From: a virus
Strand: one strand, 5' to 3'
IMG/VR virus record: IMGVR_UViG_3300009285_000039
Location: 1-12,290 of that record
DNA: 12,290 nt
Below the pieces are notes generated by a model. That model did not search any database. It worked only from the letters and a program-made list of their open reading frames with translations, and was not told the origin of the DNA. A program made the translations under genes and the position numbers. Positions 1 to 12,290 of the stretch are shown in pieces; position 1 is the first letter of the stretch; each line of letters starts with the position of its first letter.

Positions 1-77
1 AGCTTATTAATTAATAATTCTATCTCGAATGTGAATACTTTAGGTATAAGAACACAAACAGGATGCTACTATAATAC
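1..77. repeat. Left copy of an exact 77-nt terminal overlap (identical to 12214..12290), indicating circular closure and a unique length of 12,213 bp
   Basis: Base-by-base comparison of the first 77 nt (agcttattaattaataattc...ctactataatac) with the last 77 nt shows no mismatch. The reading frame is continuous across the join. Confidence 0.9.
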
Positions 78-1041
78 TATCGCAAATAATTCTGTCAATA
101 ATAGTCAATGGAATTGTTATGATGCTGATGGATACTATAATAATTATACTACAAACATAGCTTATAATTGTTACCATAATAGTCTAGATATCTGTGGAAT
201 GACTACCCCGAGCATAAGAGCAGTAGGTGGTGTCATATCAGGAAATATTGTTTATGGCAGAGCATTAGCATATTTTTGTTATGGGATAAATATGACACTT
301 AAAAATAATATTGGATACTCTTTAACTGATAATGATGCTGGTGCTTATGGTATAGGTGTAGAGGGTTATCCCGCTAATATGTCTAATATATTGATAGAAA
401 ATAATACTTTGCATCAATATAACATTACAAGATTCATCGCTGTTGGCGGGAATGGTGTTATAATTAAAAACAATAAGTTTAATGGTTCAGGGTATGGTGC
501 GAAGATATATGCTTATCCGCCGAATCCTATAATGGTAAATATTACATTTATTAACAATACTATGATTAGTGATGATGACTTAATTTATGAGGTTGAGCAG
601 AACAATAGAAGCAATATAACTATTTATCAGAATAGTAATTATACATTTCGGGCAGTCTCAGTCGCAGGTCGGGGAGCATATTATACATTATATGCTACAG
701 GAGACTATAATGATGCCTTTAATGCTACTGGTGGGATAATTCAAGCGAACTTTACTATCTTAAGTGGCTATTTAAGTAATGGTGAGGTAATTAATGTGAC
801 AGCATTAGAGAATGGTTCGGCTCCGCCTGGAGGATCCTGTTCTTATGGTGGTTCGGGTGTCTGGATCATTAATATGTCTCTTAATTGTAATATCACTGCA
901 CCATTCACTGGCAACATATCGTTGATTGATAATGGAAATGTTTATATTAATTCCACTGTTAATGTGAGCAATAATTGGGCTCCATTAATGGGACAAATTA
1001 GGTGGTTCCTATCAGGAGCTAGGGTTAATAGGGTATATTGA
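1..1041 (+). CDS. C-terminal 346 aa of the 695-aa exported LamG-like / parallel beta-helix protein, continuing from 11167..12213 (putative receptor-binding protein, adhesin or depolymerase)
   Basis: Position 1 starts a codon in the same frame as ATG 11167 once the 77-nt overlap is collapsed. There are repeated N-rich beta-helix-type turns (NNSVNN, IENNTLH, IKNNKFN, FINNTMIS). Stop TGA is at 1039-1041. The GTG start at 31 in the ORF track is an artefact of the linear cut. Confidence 0.8.
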   Translation, partial: SLLINNSISNVNTLGIRTQTGCYYNTIANNSVNNSQWNCYDADGYYNNYTTNIAYNCYHNSLDICGMTTPSIRAVGGVISGNIVYGRALAYFCYGINMTLKNNIGYSLTDNDAGAYGIGVEGYPANMSNILIENNTLHQYNITRFIAVGGNGVIIKNNKFNGSGYGAKIYAYPPNPIMVNITFINNTMISDDDLIYEVEQNNRSNITIYQNSNYTFRAVSVAGRGAYYTLYATGDYNDAFNATGGIIQANFTILSGYLSNGEVINVTALENGSAPPGGSCSYGGSGVWIINMSLNCNITAPFTGNISLIDNGNVYINSTVNVSNNWAPLMGQIRWFLSGARVNRVY

Positions 1042-1050
1042 GGTGTAAAA

Positions 1051-1314
1051 ATGAAAAAGGATACTAGTTTGAGTAAGTCAGGATCTATGAAGGGTTATAG
1101 TCTTAAGGTATGGCTTGTGAAGAATAAGAATACTTTGAAGACTTTGGCTGCTGCTGTTGTGGCTATAGGGACGTTCTTTATTCCGAGTGTTGAGAGTATA
1201 GAATTGTCAGCATCGTTGGCTGTGGTTACTGGATCATTGTCTAAGTTAGGTCTTGATGCATTAGATTTCTATTTGTCTGATGTGTGGGTGAAGGTTGATC
1301 CACCTATTATCTAA
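1051..1314 (+). CDS. Small membrane protein (87 aa), function unknown, holin-like or anchor-like topology
   Basis: Strong SD GAGGTG at 1040-1045, 5 nt before the ATG. Basic N-terminus, then a hydrophobic segment TLAAAVVAIGTFFIPSV and a second weaker one, LSASLAVVTGSL. It is the last gene of the rightward arm. Confidence 0.6.
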   Translation: MKKDTSLSKSGSMKGYSLKVWLVKNKNTLKTLAAAVVAIGTFFIPSVESIELSASLAVVTGSLSKLGLDALDFYLSDVWVKVDPPII

Positions 1315-1325
1315 AGAAATTATTA

Positions 1326-1345
1326 GGGGACGTGATATCGTCCCC
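1326..1345. terminator. GC-rich hairpin between the convergent arms (stem GGGGACG, loop TGATAT, stem CGTCCCC), a candidate bidirectional terminator
   Basis: A perfect 7-bp stem read directly from the sequence. It lies in the 52-nt gap between the stop of 1051..1314 (+) and the stop of 1367..1696 (-). There is no clean T-run on the plus side and only a partly T-rich tail on the minus side. Confidence 0.5.
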
Positions 1346-1366
1346 CCAGATGTTCTTCCCCCCAAC

Positions 1367-1696
1367 TTATCTAGCTAGCATAGGAATCGGGATACCTATG
1401 ACTGTATCTTTTCCATTGCTTTTGCCTATCTGTAGCTTGATTATCTTACCGACCCATAGATCAGAATCTACACCATACTCTTCACTAATATTTTTTACGC
1501 TGTCTTTGTTTGGTGACCACTTCTTCATTTTATGATCTATTTCTACGGTCATTTCAAACTTGTTATATGCTTTCCCTTGATATTCTGCATCAACATATTC
1601 GCCACCGTCTATGATGACACACCTCTTTGTCGGGCTTGCCCTAACTAAATCCACATTTAAATAGCTGCTTTCCATTGCTTTCGTTACATCTACCAT
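1367..1696 (-). CDS. Small beta-rich protein (109 aa), possibly an OB-fold nucleic-acid-binding protein; function uncertain
   Basis: SD AGGTGA lies upstream of the ATG at 1696. The gene is tightly coupled to the ERCC4 gene (6-nt gap). The pattern YLNVDLV..(beta-rich)..KKWSPNKDSVKNISEEYGVDSDLWVGKIIKL resembles small phage proteins I associate with OB-like folds. This is recognition only. Confidence 0.5.
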   Translation of the reverse strand: MVDVTKAMESSYLNVDLVRASPTKRCVIIDGGEYVDAEYQGKAYNKFEMTVEIDHKMKKWSPNKDSVKNISEEYGVDSDLWVGKIIKLQIGKSNGKDTVIGIPIPMLAR

Positions 1697-1702
1697 TTTT
1701 AT

Positions 1703-2137
1703 TCACCTTCCGTATAGTTCGTTTAAGTTCGTTTCGAGTGTTTCAATAATCTTCTGAGCCATGATCTTGCGTGTTCTGCACTCAATAACTATGAGTTGAT
1801 ATCGTTCAATCATTGTATCCAGGATCCTTCTTAGTGTTTCTGGCCTGGTGCATATTGGTCTATTAGTCCATCTCAGGTCCATGAACTCCTGGATTGTTCC
1901 TTCTATGAAAATATAAAAAGTTTTACCCTGAAGTCTAGATCGGGTTATTTCGCGTTTAAATCTATCATGTCCCTTAATGATGCTTCCATATAGGTCCGCA
2001 AGACTTTTGCGTTCTAACACAATGTAAGGTACTAAATCAGGTGTATTATAGTCTCCTTCTTCTAGTTTGCGCCTGAGTGTCTTGTGTCTAGTGAATGATA
2101 AGGGTTTTTGTTCTCTAGTATCAATTATGATCTGCAT
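1703..2137 (-). CDS. ERCC4-type (XPF/Mus81/Hef-like) structure-specific nuclease, 144 aa
   Basis: Hallmark motifs are IIDTREQ near the N-terminus, then GDY, then VLERKSLADLYGSI, which matches the GDxn-ERKxxxD signature of the ERCC4 nuclease domain. Confidence 0.8.
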   Translation of the reverse strand: MQIIIDTREQKPLSFTRHKTLRRKLEEGDYNTPDLVPYIVLERKSLADLYGSIIKGHDRFKREITRSRLQGKTFYIFIEGTIQEFMDLRWTNRPICTRPETLRRILDTMIERYQLIVIECRTRKIMAQKIIETLETNLNELYGR

Positions 2138-2216
2138 GTAGCTTCTCTAATTGCGCATTGATCGCCCTAAGTTGTTCTAGTAACACTGCCTTTTCATGCT
2201 CATACACACTTATCAT
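2121..2216 (-). CDS. Possible 31-aa helical micro-ORF (MISVYEHEKAVLLEQLRAINAQLRKLHADHN)
   Basis: Hand translation. It fills the gap between the wHTH and ERCC4 genes and overlaps the ERCC4 start by 17 nt. There is no convincing SD. Confidence 0.2.
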   Translation of the reverse strand: MISVYEHEKAVLLEQLRAINAQLEKLHADHN

Positions 2217-2229
2217 GTGTTCGTCTAGT

Positions 2230-2559
2230 TCATTGATTGTCGGGTCCACTCTTAACCTCAGGATCAGGATCTACAAACGTGCTTAACAGGTTCTGTTGTA
2301 AGCTAGATGTGCTCAGATCTGCCATTGCTGCCTCAACAGGCGCGAGTGCAGTTAGATCATAAAACATATGCCTGCGGTATTGATGTTTCTTTAGCCATCC
2401 CCTGTATACCATTGATTGCAGTATCTTCATTGTGTAGCTATAATCTATTGCTAGCTTATTGCTTATTGCTGTCACATTCTTTCTTGTGTTGTGCACTATG
2501 TTTAGGTATACTAGTATCCTGGCTTCACTTTCTTTTATTAACTTTTTTGGTCTTACCAT
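2230..2559 (-). CDS. Winged helix-turn-helix transcriptional regulator (109 aa)
   Basis: Perfect SD AAGGAGG upstream of the ATG at 2559. The segment ARILVYLNIV..NVTAISNKLAIDYSYTMKILQSMVYRGWLKK fits an ArsR/MarR-like helix-turn-helix plus wing layout. The C-terminal tail is acidic and probably disordered. Confidence 0.6.
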   Translation of the reverse strand: MVRPKKLIKESEARILVYLNIVHNTRKNVTAISNKLAIDYSYTMKILQSMVYRGWLKKHQYRRHMFYDLTALAPVEAAMADLSTSSLQQNLLSTFVDPDPEVKSGPDNQ

Positions 2560-2562
2560 ATC

Positions 2563-2973
2563 TTATTCCTCCTTAACTACTTCTAATATTACGCCGAAAT
2601 TGAAATAGAATCTACCTTTTGCATCTGTCAAGTCTGCACCTCTCAAGTCTGCACCTCTCAAGTCTGCTCCTGTTAAGTCTGCAGCTGTCAAGTCTGCACC
2701 TCTCAAGTCTGCTCCTCTCAAGTCTGCACCTGTCAAGTCTGCACCTGTCAAGTCTGCACCTCTCAAGTCTGCACCTCTCAAGTCTGCATCTCTCAAGTCT
2801 GCACCTCTCAAGTCTGCACCTGTCAAGTCTGCATCTGTCAAGTCTGCATCTCTCAAGTCTGCACCTCTCAAGTCTGCAATTTCCAATAATATTTTTCCTG
2901 TAATCCTATTAGTTATTTTCATTTTGTCCTCATTATCTTGTTCATGTATCGGTTGAATTTTCTCATGCTCCAA
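2563..2973 (-). CDS. Pentapeptide-repeat protein with 17 consecutive A-D-L-(R/T)-(G/D/A) units and an acidic net charge
   Basis: The translation is ADLRG/ADLRD/ADLTD/ADLTG x17, with 21 Asp versus 10 Arg inside the repeat. The track start at 2973 is TTG. An in-frame ATG at 2922 preceded by GAGGA is the more likely start, giving 119 aa. Confidence 0.85.
   Translation of the reverse strand: MEHEKIQPIHEQDNEDKMKITNRITGKILLEIADLRGADLRDADLTDADLTGADLRGADLRDADLRGADLRGADLTGADLTGADLRGADLRGADLTAADLTGADLRGADLRGADLTDAKGRFYFNFGVILEVVKEE
2621..2875. repeat. Tandem array of 17 x 15-nt units (consensus gcacctctcaagtct) encoding the pentapeptide repeats
   Basis: Unit-by-unit count: 7 units are identical to gcacctctcaagtct, 3 to gcacctgtcaagtct, 2 each to gcatctgtcaagtct and gcatctctcaagtct, and 3 are singletons. 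Very few differences are synonymous. Confidence 0.95.
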
Positions 2974-3015
2974 TCTTTGATATCAACCTTTTCAACCTTT
3001 TTAACGATCTTTTTC

Positions 3016-3192
3016 TTAGCTTTTGTTGTAGTCACTTTTGCCTCTACTGAACACTACTGCTGTGTATTGGATTGTCATGCCTGATTCTTTGTTTACGTGT
3101 GTTTGTGTTGCGAATACGTTAACGGTTTTTTCGTATTCATTGACTAATTTGTCAAATTCTTCTGCACTATCACTTGTTATGGTTTTTATCAT
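3016..3192 (-). CDS. 58-aa small protein, first gene of the leftward arm (MIKTITSDSAEEFDKLVNEYEKTVNVFATQTHVNKESGMTIQYTAVVFSRGKSDYNKS); function unknown
   Basis: Hand translation; it falls below the 60-aa cutoff of the ORF track. SD GGTGAT (3198-3203, minus strand) lies 5 nt upstream of the ATG. The layout resembles small Cse60-like alpha/beta phage proteins, which is weak recognition only. Confidence 0.5.
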   Translation of the reverse strand: MIKTITSDSAEEFDKLVNEYEKTVNVFATQTHVNKESGMTIQYTAVVFSRGKSDYNKS

Positions 3193-3228
3193 TTTCGATC
3201 ACCTTAATACTACTTATAGTATAGGTTA

Positions 3229-3236
3229 TATTTAAA
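3229..3236 (-). promoter_or_regulatory. Candidate promoter element for the leftward arm: TTTAAATA on the minus strand (archaeal TATA-box-like)
   Basis: The minus strand reads aacaTTTAAATAtaacc. The element ends 37 nt upstream of ATG 3192, leaving room for a transcription start just upstream of the SD. A split ATACT-N6-AGTAT inverted repeat (3207-3222) sits between it and the SD. Confidence 0.3.
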
Positions 3237-3293
3237 TGTTGTGAAAGATATTTCCATACATCCAAAAAAGTAGTTATATATGTGACGTGAACT

Positions 3294-3347
3294 AAAAGAG
3301 AAAAAAGAAGAACAAAAGAAGCAAAAAAAGAAGAAAAAAGAGAAAAA
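3294..3347. repeat. Polypurine (A/G) tract, 54 nt with only two pyrimidines on the plus strand
   Basis: Read directly: aaaagagaaaaaagaagaacaaaagaagcaaaaaaagaagaaaaaagagaaaaa. It is non-coding. The 60-aa minus-strand ORF 3170..3352 is its low-complexity mirror. Confidence 0.8.
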
Positions 3348-3642
3348 CACACACCCTGCTAACTAAGCAAACACTCATTAGACGTATATAATAATAAAAA
3401 AGTGCATAACTTATATATAAGGTTTATGAAAGATAAATCATTACTACTTAAAAATACAACAACGTTTTATGTCTTTTTTACCATGTTTCCACACGAAATC
3501 AAGCATTTATGTTTTTTAAGCACAATATAAGAACAAAAAACTACCTGTAGTAATAATCCCCAACAAAGATTTTTGTCAGTTTTTTGATCAAATACACATT
3601 ATAATCGTGTGGTGTGTATGAACATATAAAGAGTAGTGCAAC

Positions 3643-3666
3643 ATCATGCACTAGCGCGTGCATGAT
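3643..3666. promoter_or_regulatory. Perfect inverted repeat ATCATGCAC-tagcgc-GTGCATGAT (9-bp stems, 6-nt loop)
   Basis: Read directly. The CATGCAC core recurs a third time at 3685-3691. It lies in the centre of the non-coding control region. Confidence 0.6.
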
Positions 3667-3754
3667 CACAACACAATTAATACTCATGCACAACCAAACA
3701 AACACATAAATAGATCAAAAAACTTCGATCAAACTGTCACTGATGACTAATGGT

Positions 3755-3874
3755 GTATACTAATATGTCATTATCACTACTAGTATACGTTTATCCATTC
3801 TGTTCACTCATAATCAATGACGTATACTAGTATACAAATAGCTATACTAGTATGTCACTAAGTATACTATTCAC
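3755..3874. promoter_or_regulatory. Array of about 5 palindromic sites built on ATACT/AGTAT half-sites (best copy GTATACTAGTATAC at 3822-3835), interleaved with TGTCAC and CACTAAG motifs
   Basis: Copies: GTATACTAATAT 3755-3766, CTACTAGTATAC 3777-3788, GTATACTAGTATAC 3822-3835 (a perfect 14-bp palindrome), TATACTAGTATG 3843-3854, GTATACTATT 3862-3871. There is an extra half-site, CTAGTATA, at 3942-3949. Confidence 0.7.
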
Positions 3875-3888
3875 TAAGCGACAGTTAA

Positions 3889-3909
3889 GGGGGGGGATAA
3901 AGGGGGGGG
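3889..3909. promoter_or_regulatory. G8-ATAAA-G8 homopolymer doublet 46 nt upstream of the terL start
   Basis: Read directly: G at 3889-3896, ataaa, then G at 3902-3909. By eye these are the longest G runs in an otherwise AT-rich unit. Confidence 0.8.
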
Positions 3910-3954
3910 TTAGATGTCACAAAAATTATTATTAATGATGTCTAGTATATTTTT

Positions 3955-5214
3955 ATGATTCTTGATCAATGGCAGAAGGATGTTTTGGAAGCTGAGGGGA
4001 ATATTTGTATTTGTTCTGGTCGTCAGGTTGGTAAGTCTGAGATTATTGCCCTAAAAACTGCTACCTTCATCTCTAAGTATCCCAACAAAAAGGTTCTTAT
4101 TATCTCGGTGACTGAGGCTCAGGCTGAGAATATGCTTATTAAGATCTTGTTGCATTTGCATGCTATTGATAAGCGGTTGATTGCTAGGGGTGGTAATCGT
4201 CCTACTAAGCATAAGGTTGTTCTTATGAATGGGAGTTATGCTATCACTAAAGCAGTCGGACAATATGGCTTAGGAGCTCTTGGTTTGACTATGGACGTGG
4301 TTGTTCCTGATGAGTGTGCTTATCTTCCTGAGACTATTTGGGCGTCGATCACCCCTATGCTCTTGACCACTGGTGGTTCTTTGTGGTTATTGAGTACGCC
4401 TAATGCTCAGGAAGGATATTTTTATAAGGCGTATACTGATCCGTCTTATGGTTTTAGGACTTTTCATGTGAATTCTGAGGATGTGGCTAATGCTCGTGCT
4501 GAGCCTATGCGTTCTCTTATGTTAGCACACTTGGAAAGGGAGAAGTTGCGTATGTCTCCTATGCAGTATGCTCAGCAATACCTAGCACAATTTCAAGAAG
4601 AATTGGGACAATTGTTTTCTGATGAGCTAATTCAGGGTGCGCAGGTTATGGATCGTGTGCCTCTTGTTAAGGGTGATTATTATTTGGGTGTGGATGTTGC
4701 TAGGATGGGCGGTGATGAGACTACTTTCGAGATCCTGGAGCGTAAGGATAAGAAGTATTATCAAAGAGAAAATATTACTAATAAGTATACGCTAACAACT
4801 GAAACCATCAGCAAGATTTTAGAATTAGATCGCATTTATGATTTCAAACAAATATATATTGATGATGGTGGCTTAGGCGTGGCTGTGTTTGATCAATTAT
4901 TGAATACTAATCAGACAAAGAATAAAGTGGTTGCGATTAATAATGCTGCTAGATCTATAGAAATGGATAACAACCGCAGACGTAAACTCTTGAAGGAAGA
5001 TCTTTACCTTAACTTCTTAAACCTCATCGAGAAACAGGAATTATTTTTGTTGAAAGATCCCGAAATTTTTACTAGTTTAAAGTCTATTATGATTGAACAT
5101 GATGTGCAAAAACAAAACATTAAAATATATGGGCGTTATAGTCACATTACAGAAGGCTTAATTCGGGCTGCTTGGAGTAATCACTCGACGAGACTAAACC
5201 TTTGGGTTAGGTAA
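3955..5214 (+). CDS. terL: Terminase large subunit (ATPase plus RNase H-like nuclease), 419 aa
   Basis: Walker A is CSGRQVGKSE, Walker B with the catalytic Glu is DVVVPDECAY, and the coupling motif is LLSTPN. Nuclease acidic motifs are YYLGVDVARMGGDETT and IYIDDGGLGVAVFDQL. No SD is present, so this may be a leaderless first gene. Confidence 0.9.
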   Translation: MILDQWQKDVLEAEGNICICSGRQVGKSEIIALKTATFISKYPNKKVLIISVTEAQAENMLIKILLHLHAIDKRLIARGGNRPTKHKVVLMNGSYAITKAVGQYGLGALGLTMDVVVPDECAYLPETIWASITPMLLTTGGSLWLLSTPNAQEGYFYKAYTDPSYGFRTFHVNSEDVANARAEPMRSLMLAHLEREKLRMSPMQYAQQYLAQFQEELGQLFSDELIQGAQVMDRVPLVKGDYYLGVDVARMGGDETTFEILERKDKKYYQRENITNKYTLTTETISKILELDRIYDFKQIYIDDGGLGVAVFDQLLNTNQTKNKVVAINNAARSIEMDNNRRRKLLKEDLYLNFLNLIEKQELFLLKDPEIFTSLKSIMIEHDVQKQNIKIYGRYSHITEGLIRAAWSNHSTRLNLWVR

Positions 5215-5221
5215 AAAAAAA

Positions 5222-5371
5222 ATGGCATTTCGAGACAAATATACCACTGATGCGTTAATTCTTAAAGATCCTGATCCAAAAAAACCTGAGAAGAATAAGA
5301 TTATATTATCTAATGATGCTTTAGCTATTGGTGAATTGCTTGAATGTTTAATAAATCGGATGGTGAAATAA
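5222..5371 (+). CDS. 49-aa hypothetical protein (MAFRDKYTTDALILKDPDPKKPEKNKIILSNDALAIGELLECLINRMVK)
   Basis: Hand translation. It fills the gap after terL, and its stop overlaps the next ATG (TAATG). An A10 run lies immediately upstream. Confidence 0.35.
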   Translation: MAFRDKYTTDALILKDPDPKKPEKNKIILSNDALAIGELLECLINRMVK

Positions 5372-5475
5372 TGGTGTATCCACTAACAATATATTTTAAG
5401 TCAGAGAAAGAGCGTGATGAATTTAAGATGCCTGCACCTACGGTTGCAGTAGTTGTTGCGAAAAAAAAGAAGTGA
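5371..5475 (+). CDS. 34-aa hypothetical protein (MVYPLTIYFKSEKERDEFKMPAPTVAVVVAKKKK)
   Basis: Hand translation. It is translationally coupled to the previous ORF and ends 4 nt before the next gene. Confidence 0.3.
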   Translation: MVYPLTIYFKSEKERDEFKMPAPTVAVVVAKKKK

Positions 5476-5479
5476 TTGA

Positions 5480-5863
5480 ATGGCTGTTACTTATGCTTTA
5501 GCTACGGAAATGGTATATAAGGCTGGTGCTAATGTAAATAGTACAGCGACTGCTGCAGCATATACTCTTGCTTTTGGCTTAATGGTTGAAGGAAATATTA
5601 ATACTGCTTCAGGGTATAATTGGTCTGATTGGTATACAGCGTATGCTGCTACTTATCCCGACGTGGCAGGGTTATTAGTTGATTGCGCAACAAATCTTGG
5701 AGCGATCTACATAATAAATTATGATATGAGCGGTTTTACTAATATTCAAGAGGCTGTTGCTAGGATTAACACATTGTATGCGTTGTATGTTTCTGAGATC
5801 GCATTATTGAAAGAGGAATCTAAGAAAGACTTTGTTCGACTAGGCGGGGGAACTTATCCATGA
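5480..5863 (+). CDS. Putative head-tail adaptor/connector-like protein (127 aa)
   Basis: The size, the alanine-rich helical N-terminus (YALATEMVYKAGANV...AAAYTLAFGLMVEGNIN) and the layout are reminiscent of gp6/gp15-type head-tail connector families. This rests on recognition and position only. Confidence 0.35.
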   Translation: MAVTYALATEMVYKAGANVNSTATAAAYTLAFGLMVEGNINTASGYNWSDWYTAYAATYPDVAGLLVDCATNLGAIYIINYDMSGFTNIQEAVARINTLYALYVSEIALLKEESKKDFVRLGGGTYP

Positions 5864-6486
5864 GCGGTGTACCACAAAATTTTCAGGCTATAAGCAGTGT
5901 GTTAGCGAATTATAATTTTGTAGACATAGCTTCAGGAACTGGATATATCAATTTTTATGCGGGTAAGACTGTGGATCTAGCATTATTATCTAATTTCACG
6001 TACTATTCTGACACGATAACTACTGATTTCACTGTTGCTAGTGCTGCGTATAATAAGATTGTTGATCAAGATTTTGATGTACTCCTTAATCGTCCTCTGG
6101 ATTTGAAGGGTTTAGGGATTGTTAATGTTCCAGTGTTTGGTTTGAGTAATCAAGTGCACTTATATGCTGTAGCTACTCTTAGGAAGTGGACTGGTGCTGT
6201 AGAGACGGATATAGTGAGCAATACTAGCAGTGTATTGGATTCTGCTGGATCAAGTTATAAGATGCTTGCTGTGGACTTAAATATTCCATTAACACATTTT
6301 AAAATCGGTGAATATCTTAGATTAACCATTGAGATTTGGGAAAAGACTACTGGCGCAGCATCTAGTGGTAAGTATGCTCATGATCCAAAGAATCGAACTA
6401 CTGGTTTGGGCACTGATGTGTGGGATAGTACTGGCGCGTGTCCTAGTCAATTATCTTTTCAGTGTCCTGTGAGGTTAAACTTATAA
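5860..6486 (+). CDS. Beta-rich protein of unknown function (208 aa), presumed virion component
   Basis: ATGA start/stop overlap with the upstream gene. The composition is beta-strand-like and I recognise no motif. Confidence 0.5.
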   Translation: MSGVPQNFQAISSVLANYNFVDIASGTGYINFYAGKTVDLALLSNFTYYSDTITTDFTVASAAYNKIVDQDFDVLLNRPLDLKGLGIVNVPVFGLSNQVHLYAVATLRKWTGAVETDIVSNTSSVLDSAGSSYKMLAVDLNIPLTHFKIGEYLRLTIEIWEKTTGAASSGKYAHDPKNRTTGLGTDVWDSTGACPSQLSFQCPVRLNL

Positions 6487-6488
6487 AA

Positions 6489-7577
6489 ATGGCGTACGGA
6501 TTATCAAACACAGCAACAGGGAATATGACAACTACAGTGACGGATGTTACCGTTACAGCGTTGAATACTGACGGATCTGGCGCGTCTAAGGAATCTTACT
6601 GGCAGAATACTAAGTGGAGCACTTATTGGGGATATTTTAATTGCATCCCAGAACTAAAATCTGCTCTCTTAATGAAGGCAACATGGGATGTAGGCAAAGG
6701 ATATACCACCGATCCTGCAACTGCTGTATTATTGGATAGTATTTCTGGGTGGGGTAAAGACACATTCCTGGATATTCTCTTTAATATGGATTTGATCTCT
6801 CGACTAGCTGGGGATGCATTCGCAGAAATTATTATGGATAAAAAGGCCGATACATTGCTAAATATTAAGGTGCTTGATCCTGGAAGTATAAAGATAGTCA
6901 CCGACGATAAGGGGATTATTAAGCGTTATGAACAGAATAGCAAGATCACTGGGAGTGTAATAACATTTAAGCCTGAACAAATATTTCATTTATCACACAA
7001 TAGATTAGCAGATCAGATTCATGGGATGAGCGATATTATCTCGATGGAAAACACCATCTTAGCCGAGCTTGAGAATTTTACTGATTTAAAAAAGATTATG
7101 CACCGTCAAGCACGTCCAATGATCATGTTCAAATTAGGCACTGATGATCCAGCAAAGATCTCTGCGTTCGTTGCTAAGATGGATCAAGCTGTGAATAAGG
7201 GTGAAAACATTTATATTCCTGACGATAAGAACACCGTTTCCTACGAAGTAATCCAAGTAGACGTAGGTGCTAGCGTTATGGCGTGGCGTGAGGATATCAG
7301 GAACAAGTTTTATCGTACTCTAGGACTGCCACTTATAGTGTTTGGCAGCTCTGGAAGTACGGAAAGCGGTGGAAAGATAGAGTATCTCGCTCATGAGCAA
7401 GTATTTAGTCATGACCAAAAGTTTATAGAAGAGCAAATCTGGAATCAACTCTACTTGAGAATTAAACTTAATTCTCCTGTAACTCTTCTAGAAAACTTGC
7501 AGAAGGATCAATCTAAGGATGCTAATCAGGGTATGGAAATGCAACAGAGTGATATTACTGCTGGGAGTGGTGCATAA
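6489..7577 (+). CDS. Portal protein (362 aa from ATG 6489)
   Basis: The segment AGDAFAEII..LNIKVLDPGSIKIV.DDKGIIKRYEQ....ITFKPEQIFHLSHNRLADQIHGMSDI...LENFTDLKKIMHRQARPMIMFKLG matches the conserved core layout of HK97/SPP1-type portals. It lies downstream of terL. The GTG start at 6462 would overlap the upstream gene and lacks an SD. Confidence 0.75.
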   Translation: MAYGLSNTATGNMTTTVTDVTVTALNTDGSGASKESYWQNTKWSTYWGYFNCIPELKSALLMKATWDVGKGYTTDPATAVLLDSISGWGKDTFLDILFNMDLISRLAGDAFAEIIMDKKADTLLNIKVLDPGSIKIVTDDKGIIKRYEQNSKITGSVITFKPEQIFHLSHNRLADQIHGMSDIISMENTILAELENFTDLKKIMHRQARPMIMFKLGTDDPAKISAFVAKMDQAVNKGENIYIPDDKNTVSYEVIQVDVGASVMAWREDIRNKFYRTLGLPLIVFGSSGSTESGGKIEYLAHEQVFSHDQKFIEEQIWNQLYLRIKLNSPVTLLENLQKDQSKDANQGMEMQQSDITAGSGA

Positions 7578-8507
7578 ATGGCAAACTATAAAGAGTATAT
7601 GGGAAATCAGGTGAGCAAATTCTTACCTAAAACAAAAAAGAAATCAGTTACCCTCCCAGAGAAGGAGAATACCCCACTTCCCGATCCTAGAATGCAGGGA
7701 AGCATGAAATCATTATATGAGGATATTAAGAAGAATAAGTCTGCTCCTGAAGGTTATCATAAAGCTGGGACTTATGCTTCAGATTATAAGCCAATCATAG
7801 AGCCTACAGTTAGAGAGAAGGTGCAGGCAACTATTGATCAAGCAAATTTAAAGAAACAGATGGAGACAGAACAGGCAACCCCAAATGTTTCTCAAGAACA
7901 ATTATCACAGCTCGGACAATTAACACCTGAACAGCAAGCAGTAGCTAATAGTAATTCTAAACTAGCAGGTAAATTTAATCTTGGTGCTGTTGGTGCGGCT
8001 GTTGCTGAACGTGCAAGTATAGGTGCTGTTACTGGAGCAGTAGGCGGTGCAGGTATTGGCGCATTGGCTGGCGGTGTTGGTGCAGTTCCTGGAGCTGTGG
8101 CTGGTGGTATTGGTGGGGCTGCGGTTGGGACTATTAGTGCATTCTTTACAGGTTTTAAAGATGTCAATTATGATAATATCGCAGGGATAGATAGTAATGT
8201 TGCTAATGCTAAATGGAAGATAAATAATGCTGCTTCAATAGCGTTAAAAGGTGCGAGTTATGAGGATGTGAAAAAGGAAGTAGGTGATAGTATAGCACAA
8301 CTTGATCTTGCTGAACGTCAATATAAGCGTGCTAGTAAGAATGTTTATGCTGAGAGAACTCATACTATGCAGAAGATGGAGGATATTATTAAGTATCGAA
8401 GGGATATTCTTCCTGATAAGATATTGCGTGTAGAGTTAGCACTACAGAGACCTAATCCTTCAGGGATAGATAATGGAGTTGATGAGGTAGGTGTGACTTA
8501 TGGTTGA
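7578..8507 (+). CDS. Protein with a basic N-terminus, a central glycine-zipper hydrophobic block and a C-terminal helical region (309 aa); scaffold-like or ejection/pilot-like
   Basis: GAVGAAVAERASIGAVTGAVGGAGIGALAGGVGAVPGAVAGGIGGAAVGTISAFFTGF is a long GxxxG/AxxxG run. The gene is immediately downstream of the portal. SD GGAGTGGTG is present. Confidence 0.55.
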   Translation: MANYKEYMGNQVSKFLPKTKKKSVTLPEKENTPLPDPRMQGSMKSLYEDIKKNKSAPEGYHKAGTYASDYKPIIEPTVREKVQATIDQANLKKQMETEQATPNVSQEQLSQLGQLTPEQQAVANSNSKLAGKFNLGAVGAAVAERASIGAVTGAVGGAGIGALAGGVGAVPGAVAGGIGGAAVGTISAFFTGFKDVNYDNIAGIDSNVANAKWKINNAASIALKGASYEDVKKEVGDSIAQLDLAERQYKRASKNVYAERTHTMQKMEDIIKYRRDILPDKILRVELALQRPNPSGIDNGVDEVGVTYG

Positions 8508-8688
8508 AATAAATTATCGTATAGTAATCGCAGGCATGGTATGTCTCACACTTATATATATCGCATTGCTATTAACTGAGCATGTAGATGGAACAATAGG
8601 CGCAATGATCGTAGGATTAATAGGTATTGCGATGGGAGTGGTTATTCCATCACCAAAAATCGATAGGCGAGGGGTGTTAAAATGGTAG
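8500..8688 (+). CDS. 62-aa protein with two predicted transmembrane helices
   Basis: IVIAGMVCLTLIYIALLL and IGAMIVGLIGIAMGVVI are separated by the short polar loop TEHVDGT. SD GAGGTAGGTG is present, and the gene has an ATGGTTGA overlap with the upstream gene. Confidence 0.55.
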   Translation: MVEINYRIVIAGMVCLTLIYIALLLTEHVDGTIGAMIVGLIGIAMGVVIPSPKIDRRGVLKW

Positions 8689-8942
8689 AAGAACAAAAGA
8701 AAGATTTAGACATTATTGATAAGGCACATCTAGCAGCTGAAAGACTAGAAATGGCAAACAGAGTAAAGAAAGAGTTATTAGATCGCGAAGAAGAACTAGA
8801 GAAACGCATGGAAGGAAGAAGACTACTAGGCGGTGAATCAGCTGCAGGCATGCCAACTAGGGAATTGACAGAAGAAGAAAAGATGCAGATAGGACTAAAG
8901 ACATACTGGAAGGGCACAGCACTAGAAGGAGTGTTTAAATGA
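8682..8942 (+). CDS. 86-aa charged helical protein, candidate scaffolding protein
   Basis: Glu/Lys/Arg-rich helical sequence (AAERLEMANRVKKELLDREEELEKRMEGRR). It lies upstream of the decoration-like and capsid genes, and the MCP lacks an N-terminal delta-like extension. Confidence 0.4.
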   Translation: MVEEQKKDLDIIDKAHLAAERLEMANRVKKELLDREEELEKRMEGRRLLGGESAAGMPTRELTEEEKMQIGLKTYWKGTALEGVFK

Positions 8943-9094
8943 TTCCAGTAGAAGAATGGCGAACAGGCCTAAAGGCCTGGCAGAATATAAAGAAACAATC
9001 AGAGATAGACGGGGAACAAGCAGACTTAATAATCCCCGTAATAGAACAAAAAATAATGGAGCTAGAAGCTCAAGAGGTAAAAGATGGCAAATGA
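8939..9094 (+). CDS. 51-aa hypothetical helical protein (MIPVEEWRTGLKAWQNIKKQSEIDGEQADLIIPVIEQKIMELEAQEVKDGK)
   Basis: Hand translation. ATGA overlap with the upstream stop, and an 11-nt overlap with the downstream gene. Confidence 0.35.
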   Translation: MIPVEEWRTGLKAWQNIKKQSEIDGEQADLIIPVIEQKIMELEAQEVKDGK

Positions 9095-9476
9095 AGCAGT
9101 ATGTTTAATTGCACCAACAAAGTTTCACACTTACACTGTGGCAGATGGTGCTGGAATAGCAAAAGGCACACTCCTTGCATTGACAGATCCAAACACTGCG
9201 GCAGCGTCAAGTGCTGATAATGACGTGTTTGCAGGTATTGCAATGGAAGAAAAGGTAGCTAGTGATGGTATAGTAAGAATGACCGCAGCACTTGATGGCG
9301 TATGGGCTTTAGTAGCTACAGCCGCAGGGATCACAGTAGGCAACCAAGTAACAGTAGGTGGAGCAAACACAGTGAAGGTATACACTACACTTGATGATGA
9401 GAAGGGCTATGTCGTAGGACGAGCACTAGAAACGACAGCTGGTAGCGAATCAATAATGGTTCGCTTAGGGTGGTAA
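9084..9476 (+). CDS. Head decoration / capsid-cement-like protein (DUF2190-like), 130 aa
   Basis: The size, the position immediately upstream of the MCP, and the pattern VFAGIAMEE..DG.V..TAALDGVWAL......ITVGNQVTV....VKV.......GYVVGRALETTAGSESIMVRL resemble the small beta-rich family usually found next to HK97-type capsid genes. Confidence 0.55.
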   Translation: MANEAVCLIAPTKFHTYTVADGAGIAKGTLLALTDPNTAAASSADNDVFAGIAMEEKVASDGIVRMTAALDGVWALVATAAGITVGNQVTVGGANTVKVYTTLDDEKGYVVGRALETTAGSESIMVRLGW

Positions 9477-9479
9477 AAA

Positions 9480-10364
9480 ATGGCAGACACAGTAGGAGAA
9501 CAAGATTTGAGAGCAGAATACATCGACGCAACAATCAAAGCAATAGCGTTGAGAGAATATGTCCTAAAAGACTTATGCACAATAGAATCGTCTAGCGCAT
9601 GGACTGAGACATATTATAGGGAGACAAATACTGATCCAACGGACCAGACAACAGGTGGCGGAGCATTTGTCAAGATTAAGGGTATCCCTAGACTATCACC
9701 ATTCCCATTCGGACAAGCAAGCTGGACAAAGGTATCAGGTATCAATCAGAAGTATGGAGCAGAAGGCTTAGTGTCTTATGAGGATGAGTTGATGAGCAAT
9801 ATCAGCGTAATCCAGAGAACAATGCTAAGAGTAGCTAGGGCACCTGTTTTGGCTGTGGATAGCGATATTGCAGCATTAATGCTTGCATCGGCTGGTAATG
9901 TTGTTACTATAGGTGCTGGTAATGAGTGGAATAGTGCGACGGTAGCCAATAGGTTACCAATCAAAGACATCCTAGATGCTATACAATTGATTAGGGCAGA
10001 CAACCTAAACGCACTAGGTGGAAACGGGTACTTATGCGTTAATGGTACAGACTACACAAACCTAATAAGCAATAGTCAGGTAGTGAATAATCCGACATTC
10101 AAGAGCGGAGTATTAGAGAATGGTGTAGTCGGAGAACTTTGCGGACTAAAGATTAAGGTCACAGAATCCTTAGAATTTGGTACTCCTGATAAGGCATATG
10201 TTGTGATAGCAAAAGAGGCTATGACATGGAAAACAGTTGTCCCCCTAACTACTATGACAATAGTTGATCCTGGAATCAAAAAGACAATCAGGGCATGGGA
10301 GTTAGGACAAGCCCAGATGGTTGTACCAAATGCTGTTGCAAGAATAGACAATACGAGGGCTTAA
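9480..10364 (+). CDS. Major capsid protein, probable HK97 fold (294 aa)
   Basis: Its size, its position after the scaffold-like and decoration-like genes, the strong SD (GGGTGGT) and a mixed alpha/beta sequence are typical of tailed-virus MCPs. An oligo-T terminator follows shortly downstream, consistent with a highly expressed unit. Confidence 0.7.
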   Translation: MADTVGEQDLRAEYIDATIKAIALREYVLKDLCTIESSSAWTETYYRETNTDPTDQTTGGGAFVKIKGIPRLSPFPFGQASWTKVSGINQKYGAEGLVSYEDELMSNISVIQRTMLRVARAPVLAVDSDIAALMLASAGNVVTIGAGNEWNSATVANRLPIKDILDAIQLIRADNLNALGGNGYLCVNGTDYTNLISNSQVVNNPTFKSGVLENGVVGELCGLKIKVTESLEFGTPDKAYVVIAKEAMTWKTVVPLTTMTIVDPGIKKTIRAWELGQAQMVVPNAVARIDNTRA

Positions 10365-10366
10365 AG

Positions 10367-10546
10367 ATGTCAGAAGACATACTCTATCCTAAGTCTTTAG
10401 TGCTTCCAGTATTAACCACAGCAGTCATAGATACATTAGTGGCAGATGTAGGCACAATAGTTTATGATGCTACAAAGAATAAGATATCTGTATGCGTGAC
10501 TAAGGCTGCTGGTGCTGGTAATTGGGAAGACGTAACAAGCGCATAA
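10367..10546 (+). CDS. 59-aa protein (MSEDILYPKSLVLPVLTTAVIDTLVADVGTIVYDATKNKISVCVTKAAGAGNWEDVTSA)
   Basis: ATG 10367 lies 2 nt after the MCP stop, with GAGGG upstream. The track start at 10295 would overlap the MCP gene. The G-x-I-V-Y-D-x-T-x-N-K...W motif resembles fibre or glycine-rich repeat units of phage tail and head fibres (weak). Confidence 0.45.
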   Translation: MSEDILYPKSLVLPVLTTAVIDTLVADVGTIVYDATKNKISVCVTKAAGAGNWEDVTSA

Positions 10547-10568
10547 TTTATTTTTTTTATATTTTTTT
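10547..10568 (+). terminator. Oligo-T block (TTT-A-T8-AT-A-T7), a candidate hairpin-less (archaeal-type) terminator, with a possible internal promoter region
   Basis: Read directly. It is the only long non-coding T-rich gap inside the rightward arm and is followed by GAGGTG plus ATG 10581. Confidence 0.4.
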
Positions 10569-10580
10569 GAGGTGTTCAAA

Positions 10581-10955
10581 ATGTCGGATGTGAAACAAAT
10601 ATTTGGAATCAGAGAATCAAGCGGTATGCTTGTCAGACCTGAGAGGCAGTCTATAGAGCAGACTGAAGATTATGCTTTTAAGCAGGTGATTCATACTAAA
10701 GAATTATACGTTAATGGTGCAGCCATAGCAGGCGCAGGAAATATTCATGAGCCAACAACATATCGAGGCACAGACTTTGCTGGAGTTAATCCCAACAAGA
10801 CATTAACACATTCTAGGACGCTACCTGTTTCTATGCAATTATTTATTGGTGGGCGTATGATGATCAGAACCGTTGAGTATACCATAGCTGGTGCTGTGAT
10901 CTCAATGGTTGATGTAACTATTGATGACGACGATTACGTCGTGGTGTGTGATTAG
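10581..10955 (+). CDS. 124-aa protein of unknown function, presumed structural
   Basis: SD GAGGTG lies 6 nt upstream of ATG 10581. The GTG start at 10572 falls inside the SD itself. I recognise no motif. Confidence 0.5.
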   Translation: MSDVKQIFGIRESSGMLVRPERQSIEQTEDYAFKQVIHTKELYVNGAAIAGAGNIHEPTTYRGTDFAGVNPNKTLTHSRTLPVSMQLFIGGRMMIRTVEYTIAGAVISMVDVTIDDDDYVVVCD

Positions 10956-10956
10956 A

Positions 10957-11160
10957 ATGAGAAGGACTATAATCTTTTTGATGCTTGCATTATTGCTTAT
11001 AGGATCTGTGTTGGCTATTGCGTTCACTCCTAAGGGTGATGTGAATCTTCAGAGGTATTATAAGATAATCAATGCTACAGGAATATCTCTAGTGAATGGG
11101 AATATTACTGGCGTGAATTGTGTGATCTACCAGTCTGGCGGGATGGATTGTTCGGGATAA
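10957..11160 (+). CDS. 67-aa exported or membrane-anchored small protein
   Basis: From ATG 10957, MRRTIIFLMLALLLIGSVLAIAF has a classical n-region, h-region and AxA-like layout of a Sec signal peptide or N-terminal anchor. The track start at 10921 overlaps the upstream gene. Confidence 0.5.
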   Translation: MRRTIIFLMLALLLIGSVLAIAFTPKGDVNLQRYYKIINATGISLVNGNITGVNCVIYQSGGMDCSG

Positions 11161-11166
11161 GATCCT

Positions 11167-12290
11167 ATGAATAAGGTACTATTATTTTGGGGATTATGTA
11201 TAGTTATTAGTACGAGTATGGTTTATGCTGCTGTGCCTTTGCCTAAATATTTTTGGAATGGTTCATCGGTGGTATCTCAAGGCACCCCTATTGTTTTAAA
11301 GAATTATAATTCTACAAATTTTCATGCTGATGGGACACTTGATTATTATAATTTTAGTGAAACAACACAAAGTTTTTTAGGAAACACAACTATTAGTTTG
11401 TTAGATTTTAATATTACTTCTGTTGGTGCTATAGCTTCATGTTTTAGTGGCAACAAATTTAGTGCTACAGATGTCTTATTTGTTAATACTCAGGATCCAA
11501 AGAATAGTACTGTCGCTGTGACCTTTGCTAGTGGTGGAACATCTGTTAGGTTTGGATTAGAAAATGGCAGTACTTCAAAAGTTTCTGTTAGTAGTGGAGT
11601 GTTAAAGAATTTTACTTGGTACTGTATTGTAGGAAACATTTTCGATATTTCTAATGTTGATTTGTTTTTGAATGGTGTTAATCAGACTGGGACTTCAGCG
11701 ATACCTGCATTAGATACTCAGGGTGTTTATATCGGTGGTTTTCCTAAATACATTTATTATAGTAATCTATTGGTAGCCTATATTGCTATCTATAATACCA
11801 CCTTATCTGCTTCTGAGATAGCGGAATTAAATATTACATGGACGAGTTATGACCCTTATAATTCTAATGAAACTAATGGTTCTTGTGTTTCACCTTCCGA
11901 AAATTTATATATTAATAACGCTACAGTGTTATGTCCAGGCGTTTTTACTTTGGTTGATCCTGATGATAATGGTGCTATAATTATTAATGCAAGTAATATT
12001 GTTCTAACCTGTAATGATACTGTATTGAAGGGTGATTATGGTGCTGGAAGTATAGGAATATATATTTCTAATAAGAATAACGTTACTGTAGAGAATTGCG
12101 GTATAAGAGAATACTTTAGGGGAATATACACTTATGGGACTATATCAAATACTATAAAGAATAATGTTTTTAATCATACAGATTATGGCATTGATACACA
12201 ATACACTAATGACAGCTTATTAATTAATAATTCTATCTCGAATGTGAATACTTTAGGTATAAGAACACAAACAGGATGCTACTATAATAC
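11167..12290 (+). CDS. N-terminal part of the 695-aa exported protein: signal peptide, LamG/concanavalin-like lectin domain, then the start of the parallel beta-helix (continues at 78..1041 after collapsing the overlap)
   Basis: Hand translation shows no stop from ATG 11167 to the window end. The N-terminus MNKVLLFWGLCIVISTSMVYA-AV looks like a cleavable signal peptide. W.CIVGN...VDLFLNGVNQTG......GVYIGGFP.....LVAYIAIYNTTLSASEIAELN is a typical LamG_3-type signature. IVLTCNDTVLKG...GIYISNKNNVTVENCGI...GIYTY.TISNTIKNNVFN matches PbH1/NosD-like beta-helix repeats. Confidence 0.8.
   Translation, partial: MNKVLLFWGLCIVISTSMVYAAVPLPKYFWNGSSVVSQGTPIVLKNYNSTNFHADGTLDYYNFSETTQSFLGNTTISLLDFNITSVGAIASCFSGNKFSATDVLFVNTQDPKNSTVAVTFASGGTSVRFGLENGSTSKVSVSSGVLKNFTWYCIVGNIFDISNVDLFLNGVNQTGTSAIPALDTQGVYIGGFPKYIYYSNLLVAYIAIYNTTLSASEIAELNITWTSYDPYNSNETNGSCVSPSENLYINNATVLCPGVFTLVDPDDNGAIIINASNIVLTCNDTVLKGDYGAGSIGIYISNKNNVTVENCGIREYFRGIYTYGTISNTIKNNVFNHTDYGIDTQYTNDSLLINNSISNVNTLGIRTQTGCYYN
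12214..12290. repeat. Right copy of the exact 77-nt terminal overlap (identical to 1..77)
   Basis: See the feature at 1..77. Confidence 0.9.

Follow-up and report, generated by a model that had tools for sequence, protein, structure and literature searches.

Predicted exported glycoproteins in the receptor-binding slot of one clade of very small head-tailed viruses, probably of archaea

Four consecutive late genes of the IMG/VR virus record IMGVR_UViG_3300009285_000039 encode a short fibre-anchor protein (124 amino acids, aa; hereafter the stub), two proteins predicted to be exported (67 and 695 aa) and a single-pass membrane protein (87 aa), and are tentatively interpreted here as a receptor-binding spike module that may mature via the secretory pathway and be joined to the virion outside the cytoplasm. 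The whole stretch analysed (the window, 12,290 nucleotides) comprises positions 1 to 12,290 of the record and carries a 77-bp terminal direct repeat (1..77 identical to 12214..12290), the usual mark of a circular assembly, so the true genome is a 12,213-bp circle. A preliminary description of the window had placed exported or membrane proteins, encoded by the last three of these genes (the cassette), in the position of the receptor-binding protein, and had pointed out that export conflicts with the assembly of particles in the cytoplasm. The placement was borne out by conserved signals and by an enrichment in N-glycosylation sequons and cysteines in six genomes, and the paradox is a real one. 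Two things had been overlooked: the gene at 10581..10955 encodes the fibre-anchor stub, and the corresponding slot of relatives holds partners lacking signal peptides. Together, they reframe the cassette as the occupant of a receptor-binding slot.

The 67-aa (10957..11160, + strand) and 87-aa (1051..1314, + strand) genes lay where they had been placed previously. The 695-aa gene is in frame only once the 77-bp overlap is removed, and thus reads, on the + strand, from 11167..12290 (residues 1-375) into 78..1041 (residues 375-695 and the stop codon); with this correction its earlier assignment from 11167 to 1041 was right, while the span given for the cassette, 10957..12290, does not take in the whole unit.

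Signal peptides were called by explicit rules for the n-, h- and c-regions (charged n-region, hydrophobic h-region, small residues at -3 and -1). The signal peptide of the 695-aa protein (11167..11229) was composed of MNK, VLLFWGLCIVI and STSMVYA, with cleavage before A, and residues 2-17 formed a helix in the AlphaFold2 (AF2) model. That of the 67-aa protein (10957..11016; MRRTIIFLMLALLLIGSVLA, with cleavage before I) was composed of MRR, TIIFLMLALLLIGS and VLA. The Sec signals proposed earlier for both proteins proved to be part of a tripartite layout kept in nine proteins from six genomes (hereafter the exported proteins): an M[KR][KR] n-region (the 695-aa protein having MNK), an h-region of 18-22 residues (11 by the segmentation rule in the truncated L036 protein; L numbers designate contigs other than the window) and a (V/A)-x-A cleavage site at position 19-22, with the -1 Ala invariant in the alignments of both the small and the large proteins. 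By these rules, all nine had class I Sec-type signals, and the retention of the same tripartite signal in nine proteins with full-length identities of 8-22% indicates that export is probably under selection. Three other types of signal were rejected: a lipoprotein signal (WGLC, FSLC and LAVC do not fit the lipobox [LVI][ASTVI][GAS]C), a prepilin-like class III signal (no G/A/S after the basic residues) and a C-terminal surface anchor of the archaeosortase PGF-CTERM or C-terminal transmembrane type (the 695-aa protein has a single hydrophobic segment, at its N-terminus).

The exported proteins were also set apart by their composition. Forty-two N-X-S/T sequons were found in the 695-aa protein, versus 15.6 +/- 3.4 in composition-preserving shuffles (z 7.7), with four control motifs at expectation, and the excess was present in each part of the protein (LamG z 4.0, beta-helix z 5.1, C-terminal region z 4.7). 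When three genomes were pooled, the ratio of observed to expected sequons was 2.2-2.65 for the exported proteins versus 0.97-1.09 for all other proteins, and cysteines amounted to ~2.0 versus ~0.6 per 100 aa. Such a sequon excess over composition, the sequence criterion for an archaeal N-glycoprotein, was therefore a property of the exported proteins. Archaeal N-glycosylation by AglB occurs on the outer face of the membrane, and the two enrichments thus place the mature proteins outside the cytoplasm. As judged from their sequences, the exported proteins appear to have been selected for sequons and cysteines, and are predicted to be N-glycosylated and disulfide-bonded outside the cytoplasmic membrane once mature.

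This composition argues against the uncleaved N-terminal helix of a cytoplasmic fibre, which had been one of the options of the preliminary description, and it bears in the same way on the more general possibility that the hydrophobic N-termini are not working export signals and that the proteins are ordinary cytoplasmic fibre parts. Relatives do carry LamG proteins lacking a signal peptide at the same locus, but the tripartite signal with its invariant -1 Ala was kept in nine proteins, the sequon and cysteine enrichment was limited to exactly these proteins, and the signal-less partners encoded in L044 and L046 were without it; a non-exported origin is consequently very improbable.

The stub (10581..10955, + strand) starts at an ATG behind GAGGTG, the GTG at 10572 in the list of open reading frames being probably unused, and has a conserved N-terminal module of ~45 aa (PERQSIEQTEDYA). 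The same module heads a 632-aa collagen-repeat fibre (L001) and a fibre of at least 464 aa (L037), both long fibres without signal peptide, from which the stub can be recognised as the virion-anchor module of the family's tail fibre in shortened form. As a short protein, the module was found in 41 database proteins (59-203 aa), and the stubs of L034 and L036 measured 78-84 aa. A different stub subtype was present in L002, L044 and L046, followed by partners with neither signal peptide nor sequon excess (one of them a LamG protein), and the late arm of the cassette-free relatives L026-L028, L004 and L040 ended in strong Laminin_G_3 proteins without signal peptide. Since fibres or signal-less LamG partners follow the anchor in relatives, the position after it corresponds to the receptor-binding slot of the family, and in one clade this slot appears to be occupied by the exported proteins. 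LamG was a recurrent virion-linked module in the family: a signal-less LamG with PKD was fused to a copy of a conserved 127-aa protein (window 5480..5863) in L004 (3057..4352), and a signal-less LamG formed a separate open reading frame within the head block of L003 (6461..6964).

The stub, 67-aa, 695-aa and 87-aa genes were separated by 1, 6 and 9 nt, and gene coordinates showed comparably tight spacing in L031, L034 and L043, so that stub and cassette are predicted to be translationally coupled as one late unit, with late rather than moron-like expression. A moron or lysogenic-conversion gene was rejected on these same gaps, the only intergenic tract lying upstream of the stub. This oligo-T/TATA-like tract (TTATTTTTTTTATATTTTTTT; 10548..10568, + strand, read from the sequence), which follows the 59-aa gene and precedes the stub, may act at the head of the unit as a promoter, terminator or attenuator element of archaeal type. 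It would be a strong termination signal of the archaeal type, which suggests that stub and cassette are transcribed separately or by read-through; it was rejected as the TATA box of the stub, as its spacing puts the expected transcription start past the ATG. A G+C-rich, terminator-like hairpin (1325..1346, - strand; consensus scan only) was located where the late and early arms converge.

The cassette was present in six distinct related genomes, including the window. The small exported, large exported and membrane proteins measured 283, 546 and 80 aa in L031, 79 (65 from the likely start), 757 and 87 aa in L032, 123, 547 and 94 aa in L034, and 201, 447 and 89 aa in L043, which encoded an extra 66-aa tail-anchored protein; the cassette of L036 was partial. 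L033 was the same virus (99.7% identity), and its apparently split large gene (157 + 526 aa) was a scaffold-gap artefact rather than a real variant. Full-length comparisons of the window, L034 and L031 gave 85-92% identity for the major capsid protein (MCP), 28-61% for the stub, 37-41% for the membrane protein and 8-22% for the exported proteins (16-22% for the large one). Domains of the large proteins had also been shuffled: LamG preceded the helix in the window and L034, followed it in L032, and was absent from L031 and L043, which had the helix only. The cassette thus appears to be the fastest-evolving part of the genome, with a rate typical of host-range genes. Recent capture of the large gene from a host was rejected: its G+C content at third codon positions (GC3) tracks the composition of each virus, as in a long-resident gene.

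For the 695-aa protein, the domains recognised were a LamG-like domain (~11470..11823), a beta-helix (from 11878, continuing to ~663) and a C-terminal region (664..1038). The LamG domain seen in the preliminary description fell 0.1 bit short of the Pfam gathering threshold in the 695-aa protein itself (Laminin_G_3, PF13385: E 3.9e-6, 27.5 vs. 27.6 bits), while orthologues passed it (34.9 bits in L034, 34.3 bits in P0035 of L032). Of the NosD/pectate-lyase-like parallel beta-helix proposed there, the beta-helix was recovered with PF05048 (26.3 bits, cut-off 23.6), TIGR03804 (20.3 vs. 19.45) and AF2 (residues 240-390, stacked short strands, pLDDT >90), but NosD proper was rejected (TIGR04247, 20.4 bits vs. 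the 300-bit cut-off), only generic beta-helix repeats being in common. The C-terminal region (residues 571-695) was without domain assignment, as had been stated; its final 60 aa (motif from 838) recur in P0035 of L032. Only the beta-helix core was modelled by AF2 (mean pLDDT 56 for the whole protein), the LamG region not being modelled, so fold searches confirm a generic beta-helix and cannot separate a binder from an enzyme: Foldseek matches were beta-helix proteins (E ~1e-3 to 1e-6, TM-scores 0.15-0.37), including GH28, GH87 and GH110 enzymes, lyases, tailspikes and depolymerases. Searches with the 695-aa protein gave no match in the PDB (sequence search) or in IMG/VR. Overall, the protein is best described as a predicted LamG lectin domain joined to a parallel beta-helix of carbohydrate-binding type, and belongs to a class of exported archaeal surface proteins.

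Homologues of the 67-aa protein were encoded in L031 (283 aa), L032, L034 (123 aa), L036 and L043 (201 aa). This small exported family (67 to 283 aa in total) shared a conserved ~20-aa peptide right after the cleavage site, followed by a variable remainder; the mature form of the 67-aa protein (~47 aa) had this peptide, 2 sequons and 2 Cys. The large exported proteins had no N-terminal peptide in common.

The 87-aa protein had a basic N-terminal motif (S.SGS.KGY..K), the single internal transmembrane segment already noted in the preliminary description (1141..1194, ~residues 31-48) and an acidic C-terminal tail (D..DF...DV). Homologues were present in L031, L032, L034 and L043 (44-47% identity in a three-sequence alignment), all four with a net charge of +4 to +6 on the N-terminal side and -2 to -3 on the C-terminal side, an asymmetry which predicts an N-in/C-out topology. 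The protein had no match in Pfam, PHROG or NCBIfam, and the family had none outside these viruses in IMG/VR and metagenome scans; both small families (67-aa and 87-aa) were found only in these viruses. The extra protein of L043 (4318..4518, 66 aa) has a C-terminal transmembrane segment, follows the 87-aa homologue and is absent from the window. Another small membrane protein (62 aa; 8500..8688, + strand) was encoded within the head-morphogenesis block, with two transmembrane segments and a short basic C-terminus (SPKIDRRGVLKW). It was kept in the cassette-free relatives L026, L027, L002 and L024, has the classic layout of a small holin and is a better candidate than the 87-aa protein for a family-wide holin, and thereby for the step in which the membrane is breached.

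Database relatives of the 695-aa protein were restricted to the beta-helix. Word-indexed searches, with an index that is blind to N-rich proteins, gave 0 matches for the protein and 1 for a four-sequence profile, and exhaustive phmmer was used instead. It retrieved 527 relatives, matching only residues ~230-400, in proteins of up to 4,291 aa. Ninety-nine of the 142 relatives with an M start opened with a signal or transmembrane segment, and in many the beta-helix cap came directly after the signal, as in the viral P0012 and P0035. The best cellular match was on an 868-kb contig (L041) encoding archaeal ribosomal proteins, aEF-2 and an archaeal prepilin peptidase, and adjoined a gene of more than 4,846 aa (21944..31874) with Laminin_G_3 and Beta_helix domains, the domain pair of the viral protein. 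These homologies point to a small-genome, DPANN-type archaeon as the putative source lineage of the cassette domains, and the host of the virus is probably of the same type. A scan of genome contigs for the MCP found three members binned in metagenome-assembled genomes (L038, L039 and L040, assigned to Spirochaetales, Bacteroides and Pacearchaeota); host calls based on these bins were rejected as taxonomically inconsistent, which fits mis-binned small viral contigs, so the three were probably mis-binned and such calls are probably unreliable for the family.

In the interpretation that we tentatively favour, the distal, glycan-binding part of the tail fibre would have been moved to the secretory pathway in a minimal head-tailed virus. 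The exported proteins would be retained on the outer side of the membrane, with the ectodomain of the 87-aa protein as a possible tether, and when infection ends with the breaching of the membrane they would dock onto the stub of released capsids, perhaps via the conserved N-terminal peptide exposed by signal cleavage of the small exported protein, so that the particle would be completed outside the cytoplasm. Export might have been necessary if surface domains derived from a host fold only with glycans and disulfides. The host-recognition apparatus could then be a secreted N-glycosylated complex added outside the cytoplasm to a virus with an HK97-type capsid, portal and terminase, a possibility that we regard as a serious one while keeping it provisional. 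In an extreme version, the basic tail of the 87-aa protein would link cytoplasmic capsids to the external spike, and the particle would leave wrapped in, or attached to, spike-studded membrane; this would be a prokaryotic counterpart of the herpesvirus combination of HK97 capsid and envelope glycoproteins.

Several points weigh against a spike assembled in this way. We know of no head-tailed virus that loads an exported protein onto its particle, which gives the proposal a low prior, and a membrane-tethered complex would need to be released in order to join the particle. No docking motif common to all the large proteins was found, and the co-variation of stub type with the N-terminus of the small protein is explainable by the linkage of adjacent genes. 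The cassette genomes all fall within a single clade (MCP identity of at least 85% wherever the MCP is known), so stub and cassette may reflect one event instead of a repeated association. The virion has other possible binding domains, namely a 208-aa protein (5860..6486) and the 59-aa protein encoded directly after the MCP (10367..10546, + strand). The latter was homologous to the C-terminal tip domain of mini-fibres (BLASTP, 39-41% identity to P0186 and P0188, E 2e-6 and 6e-5), which are 160-170 aa long and have the same anchor module as the stub; the tip-like domain was free-standing in most of the clade, so that binding of the particle to cells may not require the cassette. Finally, the host, and hence its N-glycosylation machinery, was inferred rather than identified.

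Among the alternatives, a late exported egress factor would weaken the S-layer or another envelope glycan from outside through the LamG/beta-helix protein, secreted before lysis, with the 87-aa protein acting as a holin or pinholin to trigger or complete lysis. Such a factor would be an archaeal counterpart of Sec-exported endolysins, much like the secreted depolymerase or lysin with holin-like partners of the preliminary description. Phages are known to use signal-peptide endolysins together with holins or pinholins (PMC6116005), the cassette closes the late arm, with a small transmembrane protein adjoining, the fold matches include GH28, GH87, GH110, lyases and depolymerases, no lysin was recognisable elsewhere in the genome by protein family searches, and the egress enzymes and holins of archaeal tailed viruses are unknown, a recent review stating that neither an S-layer-degrading enzyme nor a holin has been identified for archaeal head-tailed viruses (PMC10791045). 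These points are offset by the lack of any lysin or glycosidase family match in Pfam, PHROG, NCBIfam and PDB searches, the exclusion of NosD proper and the weakness of the fold matches (TM-scores of 0.15-0.37). Conserved positions across 250 homologous domains were Cys pairs, Gly-Ile turns and an Asn ladder; none of the acidic residues in the beta-helix body was conserved, and no D/E/K/R/H was invariant among the viral orthologues of the 695-aa protein. The cassette-free relatives, which must also exit their hosts, have no equivalent, and a lysin would not usually diverge to 16-22% identity and shuffle its domains. Holins are expected to be small and lysin-adjacent, with at least one transmembrane domain and a highly charged hydrophilic C-terminus (PMC10791045); the 87-aa protein is small and has one transmembrane segment, but its charged domain is N-terminal and its C-terminal tail is acidic and amphipathic, and the family-wide 62-aa protein (2 transmembrane segments, basic C-terminus) is more holin-like. 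An egress role is consequently weakened and appears unlikely, though it deserves consideration.

The exported proteins could instead remain on the surface of the infected cell, outside the particle, and destroy or mask the glycan receptor late in infection, sparing progeny from being lost on debris or infected cells. Comparable cases are the lipoproteins Llp and Cor from T5 and T1-like phages and, in its logic, the influenza neuraminidase. Such a factor would agree with clearly extracytoplasmic proteins of glycan-binding type, with a membrane partner that could retain them on the cell, with fast evolution tracking a variable surface receptor, and with late co-expression with structural genes, which fits a role in release. 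Nevertheless, we regard it as unlikely: the stub (78-84 aa in L034 and L036) would be all that the virion has in its receptor-binding slot, the analysis revealed no enzymatic signature, and about a quarter of a 12-kb genome would be spent on an accessory role. Improbable, too, is a surface adhesin or superinfection-exclusion factor that benefits the (possibly DPANN) host as an "auxiliary" function by altering its adhesion or virus resistance. LamG/concanavalin proteins of viruses of DPANN and of the candidate phyla radiation (CPR) have been interpreted in this way (PMC11310336), a small-genome archaeon has the closest cellular homologues, which are giant exported surface proteins with LamG and beta-helix domains, and viral genes have the same layout of a signal peptide followed by the beta-helix cap. 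The preliminary description had also suggested this function, which is conceivable, but the coupling of the cassette to the fibre-anchor gene, a structural gene, without separate promoter or terminator, points to late co-expression; moreover, no integrase or lysogeny module was seen in the genome by protein family searches, and GC3 tracking indicates a long-resident core gene and not recent cargo. Both of these cell-surface functions leave the position in the receptor-binding slot unexplained. A role as an envelope glycoprotein, with the cassette as an envelope component, is opposed by the absence of any sign of an envelope or budding machinery.

Other features of the genome were those of a tiny head-tailed virus, probably of archaea. 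The size of 12,213 bp is at the lower limit of known head-tailed viruses (11.6 kb for isolates). IMG/VR, ENA and Logan yielded a family of at least 40 related contigs (10-12 kb) that included several circular ones, and several relatives circularise at 10.8-11.3 kb. Genes of the late arm (+ strand) included TerL (3955..5214), the portal (6489..7577), a cement-like protein (9084..9476) and the HK97-type MCP (9480..10364), and those of the early arm (- strand) encoded an ERCC4 nuclease, a TrmB-type winged helix-turn-helix protein and a pentapeptide-repeat protein. The best match of TerL among isolated viruses was a haloarchaeal tailed virus (28.6% identity), and sigma-70-type promoters were not enriched (40 found vs. 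46 expected). Modules were mosaic: TerL and portal were nearest to L026-L028 (77-80% and 55-79% identity), and the MCP and cement module to L034 and L031 (86-92%) and to L001-L004 (62-65% for the MCP), with only 30-34% identity to L026-L028. A 309-aa protein after the portal (7578..8507, + strand) had a Gly/Ala-rich hydrophobic stretch of ~65 aa and a DUF6861 match (34.9 bits), its PHROG "endolysin" match being restricted to the Gly/Ala-rich stretch; it could function in ejection or as a pilot protein, and its counterparts in relatives (300 to 590 aa) showed no detectable similarity to it. The divergent arms were separated by 760 bp of non-coding DNA (3193..3954, ~30% GC) with A-rich direct repeats (3296..3351), two tandem AAGGGGGGGG(A/T)TA units (3887..3912) and nested palindromes on TACTAGTATAC (3754..3869), which may be a replication origin or promoter region; the genome encoded no recognisable replication protein. 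The 136-aa pentapeptide-repeat protein (2563..2973, - strand; Pfam E 2e-35) is built of highly regular ADLRG/ADLTG units and could serve as a DNA mimic or in anti-defence, and a long open reading frame on the opposite strand (2619..2903, "HLSSL" repeats) was rejected as a mirror artefact of these repeats.

In the literature, no account was found of a head-tailed virus whose receptor-binding slot holds proteins with signal peptides and a sequon enrichment. Should the exported proteins belong to the virion, head-tailed assembly would not be purely cytoplasmic, and tail-fibre evolution could draw directly on host surface glycoproteins whose folding is confined to the outside of the cell; if they act on the envelope, they would be a first concrete candidate for the way in which archaeal head-tailed viruses handle the S-layer at exit. 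Extracytoplasmic assembly would, if confirmed, be categorically new, and the system would otherwise be a variant of an anchor with a docked receptor-binding protein or of an exported late protein. The system is very small (12.2 kb) and recurs in many samples, which makes it tractable.

Virus-encoded receptor-binding proteins with signal peptides and N-glycans are familiar from the spikes of membrane-containing archaeal viruses such as pleolipoviruses and from the envelope glycoproteins of herpesviruses, which combine them with an HK97-fold capsid, portal and terminase. The present virus differs from both in showing no trace of an envelope or of budding, and a tail is suggested by its fibre-anchor stub. 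Among documented architectures, the closest is that of podoviruses with anchor-branch receptor-binding systems (the adaptor gp37 of K1-5/K1E/SP6, and the Klebsiella KP34-, KP32- and JD001-group phages), in which a truncated "anchor-only" first receptor-binding protein is accompanied by a separate beta-helix receptor-binding protein docking via a conserved N-terminal peptide (PMC6872550). A short fibre-anchor homologue followed by one or more separate beta-helix proteins is common to both systems, and the conserved N-terminal peptide of the small exported proteins, with its variable remainder, may correspond to the podovirus docking peptide; in contrast, the podovirus proteins lack signal peptides and are assembled in the cytoplasm, whereas the cassette has Sec signals, sequon and cysteine enrichment and a membrane partner. 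Protein family searches gave no match to docking domains of the T7 gp17 or T4 gp10 type. With Sec-exported endolysins (Lys44 of fOg44; signal-arrest-release endolysins of P1, phage 21 and phiKMV) the cassette shares a late protein with a signal peptide and an adjoining small membrane protein (PMC6116005), but its large protein is 695 aa long, sequon-rich and encoded after a fibre anchor, without a muralytic or catalytic domain match, and the probably archaeal host would be without murein. The domain pair itself is that of the giant LamG/parallel-beta-helix surface proteins of DPANN-type archaea and of the LamG "adhesion" genes of DPANN/CPR viruses. The occurrence of LamG in the receptor-binding slot, with or without a signal peptide, cautions against reading such genes in viruses of ultra-small archaea as plain host-adhesion "auxiliary" genes (PMC11310336). 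Like the giant archaeal proteins, those of the cassette are N-rich and sequon-rich, with a signal peptide followed by a "C-V-x-P...L-C" beta-helix cap; unlike them, they are far smaller, have two dedicated small partners and are embedded in a structural operon.

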